This document shows positions 3,701 to 48,700 of a DNA stretch of 64,000 bases, in pieces. This DNA comes from Octopus vulgaris (Eukaryota). The notes below the pieces were generated by a model. That model was not told the origin of the DNA. It made no database searches and saw only the letters and a list, made by a program, of their open reading frames with translations. The first letter of the stretch is position 1. The number at the start of each line of letters is the position of its first letter. The translations under genes were made by a program, and so were the position numbers. The stretch covers positions 42,346,001-42,410,000 of the forward strand of contig OX597818.1 in the NCBI GenBank assembly GCA_951406725.2, read 5' to 3'.

Positions 3701-6700
3701 CGTCTTTACAAAGTATATATTTCTTATCAACAGCATATCCATCAATTCTCAAGGCAGCTACTGTTCCATTAATTGAAGCACATCTATGTAAAGCAATGTA
3801 CAAGAACAGTATTACTCCACGTATGATATGTGCAGGCTACGTGGAAGGTGGTCTTAATAGCTGCCAAGGAGATGATGGTGGTCCTCTGGTCTGTAATATA
3901 GATGGTAAGTTACACTTGGTCATTTAAAAATTTTTGTTAACCATACATATGCCTATGCATACATGTTCACTTCTGTATTCCGAGTAGATAAAGTAATGTG
4001 AGTTTTGATCACTGGTTATAAATTTGCATCTTCCAACATGTATGGTGTTTTGTTTCAAGCTATTTTATGTCACTTGTAACACTGCTCAATGTCTTCTTTT
4101 CGAGCAAACTACCTACCAAGTCCCCAAAAAGTAATTCTTGCATTCATGCTGTGGAGTTAAAACTCCACTGTTTATCCATTTCCATGGAAAGGGATCTTCT
4201 TTAAGCACATAGTGAGAAATATGTGTGAAAACAAAATGATACAATGGATATGGTACACGATTATCTACTTTATTTTCCTGTCATTTTTGTTGTTTTTATA
4301 CAGTGTAACCACAGAAACAGGTATTTTGACTTGATTAGCATTTCACCTCACTGACATATCAGGGAATACGCCGGAAAGTATCTGGCTGTTCCAGTACCTC
4401 AACCTCATAATCACCTGCAGTAATGCTGTGTTTGGGGTTTCAAAAACCTTGGTGGGAAAACACCAGTTGCCCTTGGTATGATGCATAACTGAGAGAGTGC
4501 ACAATCCATTTTACGTTTTTTTTTTTGTTTTTGTCTTTTTTTTATTGATTTCTTTTTCCTTTCTCCATTTTTTAAAAAATGTTTTGTAAATTGTTCTAAT
4601 TGACTAAATATACTAAATATAATCATGCAACCAGACTGAGAGTAGTATAACTTAATTCTAAAAAAACTTACACAAGCATAAGTACAGTATACAGGGAGTA
4701 ACAGATGTGTGCTTTACATTTACTCGTTCGGTCAAACCTTCCTGCATAAGTTATGAGGGATCAGAGTAACATCATCATCATCATCATCAATATCGTTTAA
4801 CGTCCGTTTTCCATGCTAGCATGGGTTGGACGGTTCAACTGGGGTCTGGGAAGCCAGGAAGCTGTACCAGGCTCCAGTCTGATCTGGCGGTGTTTCTACA
4901 GCTGGATGCCCTTCCTAACGCCAACCACTCCGCGAGTGTAGTGGGTGCTTTTTACGTGCCACTGGCACAGGTGCCAGGGGAGGCTGGCAACGGCCACGAT
5001 TGGTTGGTGCTTTTTATGTGCCACCGGCATGGAAGCCAGTCAAGGTAGCGCTGGCATCGGCCACGTTCGGATGGTACATTTTACGTGTCACCGGTACAGG
5101 TATCACGACTACAATTTCCATTTGCTCCCTTCTATAAAAAGTAAGTAATTTCCAACAGGCAAAGTAGCTGGTTAGAAAATCTCTATAAGAGACAAAAGAA
5201 GTACTGAGAAGTAATGTTTATCACCACTTCAATATGGCTGTTCCATAGGAATTGACATTATTACCGTTTTTAACTCCAGGAGAGTTAGAAAATCACTATA
5301 AGAGATGAAAGCCATAAAGATTCTCAGAAGTAATGTTGATCACCACTTCAATATGGCTGTTCTGTAAGAACTGACATTACTATCATTTTTAACCCCAGGA
5401 GGAGCCTCCTTCAGCTGGTTATTGAGGTAATCTGCACTTGATATATATTGTAAGCAGAGGAGTGAACCCCTATCACCTTCTAGAAGATGATGAGACCACC
5501 ATCATCATCATTTAACGTCCGCTTTCCATGCTAGCATGGGTTGGACGATTTGACCGAGGACTGGCGAACCAGATGGCTGTGCCAGGCTCCAATCTGATCT
5601 GGCAGAGTTTCTACAACTGGATACCCTTCCTAACGCCAACCACTCCAAGAGTGAAGTGGATGCTTTTACATGCCACCGACACGAGGGCCAGTCTGGCGGT
5701 ACTGGCAATGGCCACGCTCGAAATGGTGTTTTTTACGTGCCGCCTGCACAGGAGTCACTTCAGCGACACTGGCAACAACCTCACTTGAATGTTTTGTTCA
5801 CGTGCCAGTAAGGCAACGCAGACCATACAGTTAAAAATGGTAGCAACGTCGGTTCCTACAGAACAGCCATATTGAAGCGGTGATAAAAATTATTTCTCAA
5901 TATCAATACTACTTTCATCTCATAGAGACTTTCTAACTAGATACTTTGCTTGCTGCAAGATTAGTGACTGGTTGTCACTTATTTTTCTATATATGGCGAA
6001 CTGAATCAGATTACTATTACCTCTAGTGGATGGGTATCCACCACTGAGGATAAGCACAAATAGCTCAAAACCATACTGCGGTCCTGTTGTCTGCTAGAAG
6101 TTGGTCAGGATTCACTCCCCTGCTTGCAATATATATCAGGTGCAGATTGCATCAAAAACCAACTTGAGGAGGCTCCTCCTGGGGTTAAAAACGTTAAGTA
6201 ATTTTCCTTTTATTGCAAATAAGTTTTTTTTATTTTTTATGATAATGTTATTATATGGCATAGGTGCAGGAGTGACTGTGTGGTAAGTAGCTTGCTTACC
6301 AACCACATGGTTCTGGGTGGCACCTTGGGCAAGTGTCTTCTACTATAGCCTCGGGCCGACCAAAGCCTTGTGAGTGGATTTGGTTGACGGAAACTGAAAG
6401 AATCCTGTTGTATATATGTATATGTATATATATGCATGTTTGCGTGTCTGTGTTTGTCCCCACAACATCGCTTGACAACCGATGCTGGTGTGTTTACATC
6501 CCCGTAACTTAGCGGTTCAGCAAAAGAGCCTGATAGAATAAGTACTAGGCTTACAAAGAATAAGTCCTGGGGTCGATTTGCTCGACTAAAGGCGGTGCTC
6601 CAGCATGGCTGCAGTCAAATGACTGAAACAAGTAAAAGAGTAAAAGAGTATATGCCTGAGAAAGACGGCAGACTGGCAGAACCATTAGCATGTCAGACAA

Positions 6701-45700: not shown

Positions 45701-48700
45701 AAACCGGTCATATCTGACCAAAATATTCTATTTGCTTTATGTTCAAACTGACCAAATACAGTCTCTTACACCTACCTACAATGTCATACTAAAAATAGAC
45801 AATCCTATAATTGAAATCTGAAAGCTACAAGATAATACACAACTAATTCGAAACAATGTGGATAAATGAGCATTACATTTGATAAATCAATCTGAACGCT
45901 ATAGGATTAATATATGAATAAACAAAAAAGTTATACAGTTCTATGTTTAAGAGATGAGGAATTATGTACATTATTTGCATTATTTACATTTGACAGATAT
46001 TTGTCCTCATCTCCTTGTTAACACAACATTTCGGCTGATATACCCTCCAGCTTTCATCAGGTGTCTTGGGGAAATTTCAAACCTGGGTTTTTGTTCCTAA
46101 GGTATTTTTCAATGTTGTTGTTATTATTATTATTATTATTATTATTCAGGTCACTGCTTGGAATCGAACTTGGAATCTTGGGTTTAGTAGCCCGCGCTCT
46201 TAACCACTAAGCCATGAGCATATGGCATAGTGGTTAAGAGTGCGGGCTACTAACTCCAAGATTCTGAGTTCGATCCCAGGCAGTGACCTGAATAATATTA
46301 ATAATAATAACAACATCGAAAAATACCCAGGTTCGAAATTTCCCCAAGACACCTGATGAAGGCTGGAGGGTATATCAGCCGAAACTTTGTGTTAATAACA
46401 AACAAGATGAGGACAAATGTCCATCAAATGTAAATAATGTAAAAAAAGTTATAGTTGGTTTTATGAAACCAGCCTAAATTCAAGATTACTCTAGAATTAA
46501 ATTAAAGTTTAACTTTTAAAAAAAAGGGATTGAAACTCATGATTTCTGTGAGAACACTACAACAGTTTCTTCATAACTATGTGAAAAGGGAACTAAAATG
46601 GTTTAGTTGAAAGTTGAGATAAAACAAATACAAACTTGTTTTTCAACAACACATTCACTTTGTATGGAACACGGCATCTTAACATGGTTCTCATCCCAGC
46701 AGTCTATGAAGTTTCCTGAGCTAGGTTTAGGAAGCATATCATCTTTTCCAGGGTCATAGCCATCCTAAATAAAATAAAAAAGTAATAATGATAAATATTT
46801 ATTAACATTTTTTATTAATCTATATAATATTTTGCTTGTTCCTTTGCCAGTTATACATTAGTTAGTAAGAGAGGTAGCAGTGGTTACAACAATGTGGGTT
46901 CCAGTTAATCCAATCAATGGAACAGCCTGCTTGTAAAATTAACATGCAAGTGACTGAGCATTCCACAGACACGCGTACCCTTCAGACAGTTCTCAGGGAA
47001 TGCCCAAGGTGTCACAGTGGAACTGAACTCAAGACCACATGGTTAGGAAGCAAGCTTCTCAACCGGAGCCATGCCTGCACTTGTATGTCTGAGAAAAAGT
47101 TGGAATCAACATGGTTGAAACGTGTTTTATCATAGGCCTTATTTCTTTATTGCCCACAAGGGGCTAAACACAGAGGGGACAAACAAGGACACACAAAGGG
47201 ATTAAGTCGTTTACATCGACCCCAGTGTGTAACTGGTACTAAATTTATCGACCCCGAAAGGACAAAAAGCAAAGTTGAACTCGGAACGTGAAGACAGACA
47301 AAATACCGCTAAGCATTTCACCGAACAAAGCCAATGTTGGGCCAGGCAACAAACAATAACTAATTTACAGGAGTAATCAACTGAAAGTTCATTACCTTAT
47401 TACTACACTGATATCAGTTTACTAGATCTAATGACTAAAAAAGAAACAGAAAATACTTACAGGTAATGTAAACATAATATAATGCTCCTTATTTGTATTG
47501 GGAAAAAGTTTTTCTTCTGACCAAGGGGTTGGAGCACGATGCATTTTCTCAATTGGATAGGAATTCTGAAACACAAGGGTTAAAGATAGTTTGTTTTTTT
47601 TCCAATCATAGATTTATATTAAGAAATCATAAAACAGAATATAAACAAAAAGCCTCACAATGATTAATTTAACCAGTGGTTACTCATCATGTTGTATCTT
47701 CTTATCCTTTTGAACAACAACAAAATCCAACAAAATCTCACATATTTCTGACTCAAGTACTCTTTCTATCCAGTGATTATACCATGTACTTCTTCCTTCA
47801 AACACCCATTTCTAACAAAGCTTCCAGCATAAAATTTCCACAGCTTGATCATATCATTTATATAAGTACATTGGCTTTACAGTCGTATGTTGGTCGGTGT
47901 TTATCAGAATAGCACTTAAGAGATAAAATAGGTTTTATTATTTATTTTTTTGTTGATCCAAGTCACTTCTCTCTCTTTGGCCTTCTGTGCTTCTTAATAG
48001 ATAATACTTAGCTCAGTTCCATGGTGTGAAGAAAATGGTAGATTAATCTGTCTCATGATAAAATACCAGATGATCTGATACTTGTTCCCGTCAGATCCTC
48101 TAATGAATTCACAATGTCTAGTCATAAACCACTTTCCTAATCACTTTATATTTTTGGTAATGCGATGTACCATTTTACCTATGTTGATTGGCTTTGAATT
48201 TGATGAATCTGAACAGGTAAAGACCACAGTGATAAACCAACAAAATTTTAAGAAAACCATACCAAAGTATTTCTTCATTGCCAAATGTAATGCTTGATAA
48301 AGATAATCTAATTAAAACTGATGGTAAAACTAACATAGAAATGTTTTCAAAATGAATCATTCATCATCCTCATCATCATCGTTTAGCGTCTGCTTTCCAT
48401 GCTAGCATGGGTTGGACGGTTCAACTGGGGTCTGGGAAGCCAGAAGGCTGCACTAGGCCCAGTCTGATCCGGCAAAGTTTCTACGGCTGGATGCCCTTCC
48501 TAACGCCAACCACTCCGTGAGTGTAGTGGGTGCTTTTTACATGCCACCGGCACAGGTGCCAGACGAGGCTGGCAAACGGCCACGATCGGATGTTGCTTTT
48601 TACATGCCGCCGGCACAGAGGCCAGTCGGGGCATTAGAAACATGAAGTAGTTGTACAACTTTATGAAGTTCTCTTGTTTAATGAGTTCATTAGTGAATTT

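Follow-up and report, generated by a model that had tools for sequence, protein, structure and literature searches.

LINE-1 twin priming is a process in which the two ends of a DNA break both serve as primers for reverse transcription of a single RNA and the cDNAs are joined by microhomology, inverting a 5' part of the element without duplicating its 3' end. The Schistosoma SM-alpha element is a SINE-like short dispersed repeat made up of a tRNA-like head and a hammerhead ribozyme. For PLEs, the inverted-pair architecture itself is already known and textbook, head-to-head arms with a one-sided tail being a published signature of these elements (PMC4209133 and excerpts of PMC8557442 and PMC3846280); fold-back, or self-priming, is a published proposal (excerpts of PMC3846280), and the origin of the inverted pseudo-LTRs is stated as open in the excerpts of PMC8557442. 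An anole PLE assayed in vitro cuts both target strands and extends them from two neighbouring start sites, which delimit the tail; it is predicted to dimerise (PMC11167929).

Here we describe four hammerhead loci, A to D, each with a repeat family of the same letter, in a window of Octopus vulgaris DNA (the whole 64,000-nucleotide stretch that was analysed, contig OX597818.1, positions 42,346,001 to 42,410,000). Family D resembles the EN+ Penelope/Poseidon PLEs in its reverse transcriptase (RT) with a C-terminal GIY-YIG endonuclease (EN), two core cysteines and no upstream Zn-finger linker, as well as in the minimal type I hammerhead of its pseudo-LTR, the inverted 5'-truncated copy at the 5' end, a 30-40 nt tail on one end and a target-site duplication of about 7-15 bp. 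It differs from them in that most short D copies begin within the pseudo-LTR, at a tRNA-like head with A-box and B-box motifs; head and hammerhead together recall SM-alpha, although the D head sits inside the pseudo-LTR of a coding PLE and its tRNA origin is putative. Family B is close to the Hydra-clade PLEs, for which the excerpts of PMC8557442 list Mollusca without naming Octopus, in its CxCX5C linker, the lack of a two-cysteine core, the CxxC and CxH motifs by E and N, the presence of a hammerhead and insertion into (TA)n, but its tail is about 140 nt long rather than 30-40, its ribozyme core is of the U4C type and it is known here without an RT domain.

Families A and C share with the metazoan non-LTR retrozymes (excerpts of PMC7229834 and of bioRxiv 10.64898/2026.07.22.740005) a non-coding monomer of about 355 nt, tandem arrays and one type I hammerhead per unit, and with Schistosoma PLE hammerheads the U3:A8 swap (PMC4209133). 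They go beyond known retrozymes in carrying the PLE footprint of inverted arms and one tail (in C, 21/21 pairs divergent and 16/16 with one tail, the latter count being biased by a query that contained the tail), and the word "inverted" in this sense is absent from the searched passages of those two retrozyme sources. This footprint is direct support, at the level of individual insertions, for PLE mobilisation. In contrast with L1 twin priming, the arms of the octopus pairs both begin at the 3' end and do so at two fixed sites. What the present analysis adds, and what could matter, is a count, namely the rule that one tail is present and may lie on either arm, by which double-ended priming can be tested against fold-back genomically; neither such a count nor PLE twin priming was found in a literature search whose range ended short of the 2005/2006 Evgen'ev/Arkhipova papers and supplements, and the count may already be in print.

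The four window loci

All four loci are inverted pairs in which the left arm lies on the minus strand and the right arm on the plus strand (Table 1), and arm mapping at each of them thus agrees with the initial annotation, which had described them as divergent inverted dimers. It had also called the left arm of locus A partial and devoid of the ribozyme, and the monomer alignment agrees, as this arm spans only monomer positions that leave out the ribozyme core. The SINE-like repeat between the A arms is likely a later insertion, and the 10-bp direct repeat around them is likely a target-site duplication. Loci B and C are hosted by (TA)n tracts, and the arms of locus C are 98.6% identical.

Table 1. 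Coordinates of arms, ribozymes, flanking repeats and PARG features in the window.
Feature	Position	Strand	Remarks
PARG coding span	18786..56169	-	19 exon matches to Octopus sinensis PARG
PARG intron with loci B and C	29190-32769
PARG intron with locus D	42201-46633
Locus A, left arm	5153..5500	-	Partial retrozyme-type monomers with the long (tail-bearing) 3' end; without ribozyme core
SINE-like repeat splitting the A arms	5497..5810 (about)	+	Unrelated to the arms; many window copies
Locus A, right arm	5829..6194	+	Single retrozyme-type monomer of ~360 nt
Locus A, type I hammerhead remnant	6038..6089	+	Core broken (G12 to A), stem I disrupted; strand opposite PARG
Locus A, 10-bp direct repeat	5142..5151 (left), 6195-6204 (right)		Brackets whole locus
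Locus B, left arm	30520..30786	-	Assigned to the 3' end of a Hydra-type PLE, including ~140-nt tail (30520-30660)
Locus B, left-arm ribozyme	about 30735-30786	-	Core intact, U4C variant
Locus B, junction	30790..30851	.	Palindromic
Locus B, right arm	30817..31086	+	Without tail; ribozyme about 30964-31015
Locus C, left arm	31320..31740	-	1.2 monomers of the 355-nt tandem retrozyme type; short 3' end
Locus C, left-arm ribozyme	about 31488-31533	-	U3:A8 core swap; mismatch at stem I position 2
Locus C, right arm	31751..32080	+	~47-nt tail; internal deletion of ~27 nt; ribozyme about 31820-31865
Locus D, left arm	45933..46215	-	Assigned to the pseudo-LTR of a Penelope/Poseidon-type PLE; ~33-nt tail
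Locus D, left-arm minimal hammerhead	about 46021-46066	-	Without stem III loop; G to A at stem II base
Locus D, right arm	46220..46441	+	Without tail; minimal hammerhead about 46348-46393, fails core test
Locus D, 12-bp target-site duplication	45924..45935 (left), 46442-46453 (right)		Brackets whole locus

The hammerheads were found by core-motif scans and template alignment; an Rfam scan of the window (E<=1) gave no hammerhead family, its hits being miRNA noise from microsatellites. Among the best-hit loci of each family the core is intact in 15/29 for D, 27/29 for B, 27/29 for C and 11/29 for A. Since the coding exons of PARG run along the minus strand, loci B, C and D are intronic and locus A lies beyond them, about 12.6 kb past the last coding exon. 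Two further inverted repeats of the window (38017-38450 and 54606-55057) lack a hammerhead and are left out of account.

Pair polarity, single tails and priming

Among adjacent opposite-strand pairs of families B, C and D collected from the octopus genome 77/79 are divergent, as are 13/13 pairs of family A, 4/4 of a fifth family and all 12 pairs of an intron set (1.4 Mb of gene spans picked regardless of these repeats). The polarity noted initially at four loci is not random among the collected pairs, and the minus-left, plus-right arrangement is far beyond chance. One apparent convergent pair (L083), an artefact of a (TA)n run in the reference, and six apparent convergent D rows, an artefact of a 42 nt inverted arm in the reference, were left out of the 77/79. 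Pairs make up 12 of the 36 family clusters of the intron set and only one of the 36 has a ribozyme on both arms, and compared with this set it is unusual that all four window loci are pairs.

We consider it very probable that the four loci are PLE insertion footprints, and an account in which a single PLE insertion took place at each locus, both break ends were primed and the resulting duplex is a by-product seems to us likely as a whole. Each locus would then consist of two 5'-truncated arms facing outward. A dimer of the RT-EN protein would cut both strands of the target, after which one 3'-OH would start at a distal site on the RNA and give rise to the arm with the tail, and the other would start at a proximal site and give rise to the tail-less arm, both starts probably being on the same RNA. 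Both cDNAs would stop early and be joined at their 5'-truncation points via short palindromic microhomology. Double-ended priming with joining at the 5' truncations would force the minus-left, plus-right polarity, whatever the cargo.

Exactly one tail was found in 56 of the 58 classifiable pairs and two tails in none (D 30/32, B 10/10 and C as given above; p=2.5e-7 for D alone). This nearly universal single tail likely reflects the manner of priming at the two ends of the DNA break, and it links the genomic pairs to the two start sites seen in vitro; that it records, more specifically, a PLE dimer priming both break ends from two staggered starts on one RNA is a reading which we put forward tentatively.

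The strongest competing explanation is fold-back, in which one template folds at the 5' side of the element, is copied by the RT into a hairpin and is integrated in that form, a staggered EN cut leaving the tail on one arm. Such a staggered-end hairpin would also yield exactly one tail, palindromes or overlaps of 2-12 bp occur at many junctions, that of locus B included, and the arms are near-identical in young C pairs, where 8/12 pairs have arms closer to each other than to any other copy. The same test gives 3/23 pairs in D and 2/6 in B, low scores which, these copies being old, are either uninformative or speak against one template. Evidence against fold-back comes from the position of the tail: a copied arm cannot hold 3' sequence that its template arm lacks, yet among the 27 informative pairs of B and D, 16 carry the tail on the 5'-shorter arm and 11 on the longer one, and window locus C likewise has it on the 5'-shorter arm. 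A tail so often on the shorter arm favours priming at both break ends and fits poorly with the self-priming suggested in the initial annotation; moreover, synthesis in vitro starts at the cut target, at internal RNA sites and on both strands (PMC11167929). An asymmetric deletion across the palindrome centre could later have shifted the tail to the apparently shorter arm, which leaves room for fold-back, and the split of 10 vs 9 between tail sides in D fits it too. On balance we regard fold-back as rather unlikely and lean somewhat towards double-ended priming in preference to it; if true, double-ended priming by a dimer would replace the self-priming model for inverted pseudo-LTRs.

Predicted intronic duplexes and host tolerance

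The proposal that the arms pair with each other in pre-mRNA agrees with folding prediction, the modelled duplex of locus C having an energy of -599.5 kcal/mol with the ribozyme buried by pairing inside it. It may be argued from this that host genes are protected by selection, the antisense arm, which is transcribed first, burying the ribozyme and blocking cleavage of the pre-mRNA, with the duplex possibly feeding ADAR or Dicer. Several observations are in line with such protection: by geometry, the antisense arm of a divergent pair precedes the ribozyme on either transcribed strand; all three intronic PARG loci are both-arm pairs with core-intact sense ribozymes; and retrozymes are depleted from Xenopus introns (excerpts of bioRxiv 10.64898/2026.07.22.740005). 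In the intron set, true solo ribozymes (sense 3 vs antisense 7, p=0.34) and unpaired hammerheads with an intact core (2 vs 4, p=0.69, at low power) both lean towards the predicted sense depletion in what is a small test.

Against protection, unpaired hammerheads in the same introns are nearly evenly divided (sense 8, antisense 9) and the ribozyme is covered on both arms in just 1/12 intronic pairs, so that, at low power, unpaired sense ribozymes (8) are commoner than protected pairs (1) and the protective role proposed initially finds no backing. The polarity is also unchanged in the 4/4 intronic pairs without a ribozyme in either arm and in ORF-bearing arms (L018, L141), as it is in the hammerhead-less Naiads (excerpts of PMC8557442), and locus A, outside the PARG coding span, has a broken core. 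A single minimal hammerhead shows no cleavage in vitro, minimal motifs requiring a second copy on the same strand (PMC4209133). The C ribozyme could matter, since most invertebrate retrozyme hammerheads cleave efficiently (excerpts of PMC7229834). Selected protection thus appears improbable to us, and we think that there is probably no selection of this kind: the duplex predicted for PARG pre-mRNA would probably be a by-product, and the host probably tolerates the insertions because lone hammerheads of minimal or decayed form are inefficient at cleavage, and not through selection of the antisense arm.

With regard to editing, in contigs assembled from four runs over 30200-32400 the possible RNA run has the same substitution spectrum as the other three, and these spectra are uninformative because other repeat copies are drawn in. 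The octopus lineage is heavily RNA-edited, and self-made inverted repeats, abundant in its introns, could plausibly serve ADAR as substrates; if the reading of a PLE dimer priming both break ends is true, the octopus would have thousands of ready intronic duplexes for ADAR.

Coding parents and probable retrozyme passengers

Classified by motif rather than by tree, family D reads as the pseudo-LTR (3' end) of a coding Penelope/Poseidon-type PLE. In two loci (L018 and L141) it adjoins a C-terminus of the GIY-YIG kind whose core holds two cysteines; in L018 these two and downstream histidines make up the CCHH motif. L141 is itself 5'-truncated and bears an inverted arm with a tail on its 5' side. 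Its 569-aa frame matches RVT_1 (E 2.7e-6, not reaching the Pfam cut-off) and shows no cysteine (Zn-finger) linker upstream; its GIY-YIG-type motif was read in the translation, Pfam having called no GIY-YIG domain in family D frames. In the intron set, the D arms that run beyond the (AAT)n tract all (8 of 8) have their starts in a stretch of about 25 nt at the tRNA-like head, which is recognised by eye from A-box/B-box-like motifs and from clustered 5' ends, ARAGORN finding a tRNA in 0/8 loci and Rfam giving no tRNA match at E<=10. The window D copy would accordingly seem to behave like a SINE-like derivative whose head lies inside the pseudo-LTR.

Family B, by comparable reasoning from sequence, is assigned to the 3' end of a coding Hydra-type PLE. 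Its loci extend no more than about 1.3 kb upstream, stopping before the RT domain, and read into an endonuclease with a CxCX5C linker, one core cysteine and CxxC and CxH flanking E and N, motifs taken from the translations of L155, L163, L168 and L169 and checked against section 11 of PMC8557442, whose description of the Hydra clade they match in the excerpts available. A protein search found no longer relatives of this endonuclease, which is weak evidence. Assignment to the Neptune clade was rejected, as that clade needs a CX2-5CxxC linker and CCHH.

Families A and C can be read as related tandem retrozymes of about 355 nt, with weak mutual similarity (blastn E about 1e-3). C has about 10 tandem 355-nt units in L144 and A partial tandems of a ~360-nt unit, and the units of both are non-coding with one type I hammerhead and a palindromic stem III. 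The initial statement that the loci belong to three unrelated families is valid only when A and C are taken as one family. No ORF and no PLE protein match was found in their 59 loci and no coding parent among the collected octopus loci, and A and C likely borrow PLE machinery in trans from a parent outside these loci. Only these two look like true passengers. If the dimer reading of the single tail is true, insertion anatomy would show that animal retrozymes ride PLE machinery, a mobilisation which the footprint on A and C supports.

The lack of ORFs in A and C, the polarity and tail rule common to the families and the start of the long D arms at the tRNA-like head, as expected of a short non-coding transcript, could also suggest that a single RT-endonuclease mobilises all four families as non-coding passengers. 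The coding parents of B and D are distinct, however, their endonucleases showing no significant similarity (best blastp E 0.62), no 3'-end similarity was found among B, D and C, and the targets are unequal, 3' ends lying in (TA)n in 23/29 B, 18/29 C, 6/29 A and 3/29 D loci, figures that agree for B and C with the (TA)n association noted initially. Cross-mobilisation between PLE types was also not seen in rotifers (excerpts of PMC3846280). A single RT-endonuclease is already contradicted for B and D, and for all four families it is very improbable; of the single integration mechanism first proposed for non-coding passengers, the Penelope-type mechanism that fixes the polarity stands, and the common passenger status does not, as B and D run into different PLE ORFs and the targets differ.

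Two independent neighbouring insertions, which might be stacked where copies are numerous and (TA)n targets shared, gene conversion or an assembly artefact can be dismissed almost entirely, given that both arms lie within a single target-site duplication (direct repeats of at least 7 bp, other than (TA)n, flank 22/32 D pairs vs 84/992 mismatched controls), that polarity and the one-tail rule are non-random, and that the arms of pairs differ by 1-20% with unequal end points, unlike a collapsed assembly palindrome. The two convergent pairs in the genomic collection, both of family B (L065 and L168), have arms 226-269 bp apart with (TA)n between them and are probably separate insertions.

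Polarity and one-tail structure of the inverted pairs

At all four hammerhead loci in the window (A to D, after which the repeat families are also named) the minus arm lies on the left and the plus arm on the right, as described in the initial annotation, and the left arm of locus A indeed carries no ribozyme core. Although Rfam gave no match to hammerhead families in the window, type I cores were detected at the loci: in the standard numbering of hammerhead positions, the core of B is of the U4C type and its stem III short and palindromic, C shows a U3:A8 swap, D is a minimal motif lacking the stem III loop and A has a single copy with G12 mutated. 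Dual minimal hammerheads on opposite strands, 100-700 bp apart, and the U3:A8 swap are both described in the available text of PMC4209133.

Searches of the genome yielded 1277-3676 first-look candidates for each family; in every search 40 candidates were scored and 30 loci retrieved. Among these best-hit loci (each family's window locus included; 1.5 kb flanks) an upstream inverted arm was found in 27/30 for D, 16/30 for C, 13/30 for A and 9/30 for B, and in 3/20 loci selected by endonuclease. A census of pair polarity, as proposed in the annotation, showed it to be almost fixed in the retrieved loci: once reference artefacts and eight duplicate loci had been set aside, pairs of adjacent arms on opposite strands proved divergent in 43/43 cases for D, 21/21 for C and 13/15 for B. 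The same held for 12/12 pairs, out of 36 clusters, in an intron set of spans delimited by collinear exons in myosin and kinesin genes, chosen against query bias (140 of 160 planned tiles, 1,395,800 bases, 22 genes, with 27% of bases from one gene); four of these pairs have no ribozyme in either arm, yet are divergent.

In each family the 3' end comes in a short and a long form, which differ by about 33 nt in D, 47 in C, 60 in A and 140 in B. Where both ends fell at defined 3' sites (11 D, 3 B and 5 C pairs with internal ends being left out), exactly one arm carried the extra 3' tail in 30/32 D, 10/10 B and 16/16 C pairs, the C count being biased because the query included the tail; two D pairs had no tail and no pair had two. 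For D alone this gives p=2.5e-7 against independent ends, and such a counted rule may be of use to specialists. Non-(TA)n direct repeats of at least 7 bp surround 22/32 D pairs vs 84/992 mismatched controls, and duplications of 12 and 10 bp surround window loci D and A. In the young family C the arms resembled each other more than any other copy in 8/12 pairs, and in the older families in 2/6 (B) and 3/23 (D). The pairs are a known insertion footprint of Penelope-like elements (PLEs), real and non-random, on four octopus families.

Coding relatives and proposed insertion mechanism

At one locus (L018) family D continues upstream to a GIY-YIG C-terminus, a peptide of which had 4896 genome candidates; at another (L141) a 569-aa RT and endonuclease frame stands between a 5'-truncated D copy, tailed and in inverse orientation, on its upstream side and a D pseudo-LTR downstream. 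Directly after the ORF stop, the D pseudo-LTR starts with a segment that resembles a tRNA and has motifs similar to the A and B boxes, possibly reflecting a SINE-like Pol III transcript within a coding PLE; ARAGORN found no tRNA in this head at 8 loci, nor did Rfam give a match. In the intron set, all eight D arms that extend beyond the (AAT)n tract have starts lying within about 25 nt, at the tRNA-like box, so short D copies may stem from a short transcript of their own.

Longer B copies have an upstream endonuclease with a CxCX5C linker, without a two-cysteine core, and with CxxC and CxH adjoining the E and N residues; by these sequence features B belongs to the Hydra clade as defined in the portion of PMC8557442 available. 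A fifth, Hydra-like family (kinesin span L235-L248; also L068, L072, L073, L125) has a U4C core in its pseudo-LTR hammerhead, with 4/4 pairs divergent.

Family C is a 355-nt monomer and A a related one of ~360 nt. No PLE protein matches were found in A or C loci, which therefore fit non-LTR retrozymes. Animal retrozymes are derived from PLEs, and introns depleted of them, according to part of bioRxiv 10.64898/2026.07.22.740005. Of the "three unrelated families" of the annotation, B and D are unrelated to each other and to A and C; A and C are weakly related (E about 1e-3). An array of about 10 tandem C units (L144), 98-100% identical and without an inverted arm, is likely a recent or source array, and the many isolated ~64-nt pieces of the C 3' end (intron set; L024, L069; 6/8 antisense to the gene) are perhaps a separate short family.

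At least two lineages of coding PLEs underlie the four families. Their 3' ends are followed by a (TA)3 run in 23/29 B, 18/29 C, 6/29 A and 3/29 D copies, and the (TA)n association noted for B and C holds; at least two endonuclease specificities are active, an argument against a single enzyme serving all families.

L1 twin priming and SM-alpha offer comparison systems. Double-ended priming, in which both ends of the target break would prime from two RNA start sites, would predict fixed divergent polarity, a single tail on either arm, one duplication bracketing the pair and variants common to both arms; judging from the sequences, we favour it with moderate confidence. Fold-back would make the arm with extra 5' sequence the template, and hence the tail holder, an expectation broken by 16/27 B and D pairs in which the 5'-shorter arm is tailed (the longer in 11; 5' ends within 20 nt in 13); later deletion of the pair centre could account for these exceptions, and we consider fold-back rather unlikely. 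Consulted sections of the literature report an anole PLE protein that cuts and extends both strands, with two adjacent RNA start sites bounding the tail (PMC11167929), head-to-head as the commonest arrangement, with a tail on one inverted pseudo-LTR and self-priming proposed (PMC3846280), an inverted 5'-truncated copy, one-sided tail and (TA)n bias in PLEs (PMC8557442), and inverted pseudo-LTRs among curation features (PMC8969392).

PARG setting and proposed ribozyme protection

Octopus sinensis PARG is 100% identical to one window exon over the aligned part. Judged by coding matches, locus A lies ~12.6 kb beyond the last PARG coding exon, so the suggested tolerance of such insertions by this gene would concern no more than three of the loci.

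Features of the window (G000:C5:42346001-42410000 of the 2.8-Gb assembly) and related loci
Feature	Position	Remarks
PARG coding exons	56169 to 18786 (-)	19 tblastn matches, O. sinensis protein
Locus A	~5.1-6.2 kb	
Locus B	30520-31086	PARG intron 29190-32769
Locus C	31320-32080	PARG intron 29190-32769
Locus D	45933-46441	PARG intron 42201-46633
D tRNA-like segment	46220-46290, 46145-46215	also L010, L022, L023
Open frame, 200 aa	1830-2432 (-)	weak PHD-finger matches below cut-off; possibly LINE ORF remnant
Inverted pair, different repeat family	14557-15897	flanks an inserted repeat
Mariner/Mos1-type transposase remnant	25367-26398 (-)	PARG intron; HTH_48 and Transposase_1 matches
(GAG)n-rich tract	36133-36413	PARG intron 36066-36481
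Long hairpin-like inverted repeats	38017-38450, 54606-55057	MITE-like, no hammerhead; a few further copies among other examined loci
C-family array (L144)	G000:C4:13620759-13624379	
Second PARG-domain match	G000:C8:77750940-77751122	another chromosome

The arms are predicted to pair in PARG-strand RNA, as had been suggested, with 69-87% of bases paired; the predicted C duplex (-599.5 kcal/mol) has the ribozyme inside. Cephalopods edit their RNA heavily. In the divergent geometry the antisense arm is always transcribed first, which physically favours the idea that it shields the ribozyme. The intron census did not bear this out: uncovered ribozyme regions numbered 8 sense vs 9 antisense (95% interval for the sense share 0.23-0.72), with one pair having ribozymes in both arms, host-strand calls assuming no nested genes in spans that may include them. 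True solo ribozymes (3 sense vs 7 antisense, p=0.34) and uncovered intact cores (2 vs 4, p=0.69; two or three D cores possibly failed the core test through alignment ambiguity) lean towards protection. A protective function is unsupported by this low-power test. A single minimal hammerhead was inactive in vitro, as stated in part of PMC4209133, and D therefore requires no cover. Efficient cleavage is possible for hammerheads of invertebrate retrozymes (PMC7229834, in part), which makes C the case of most interest. Its PARG-sense copy has a mismatch in stem I.
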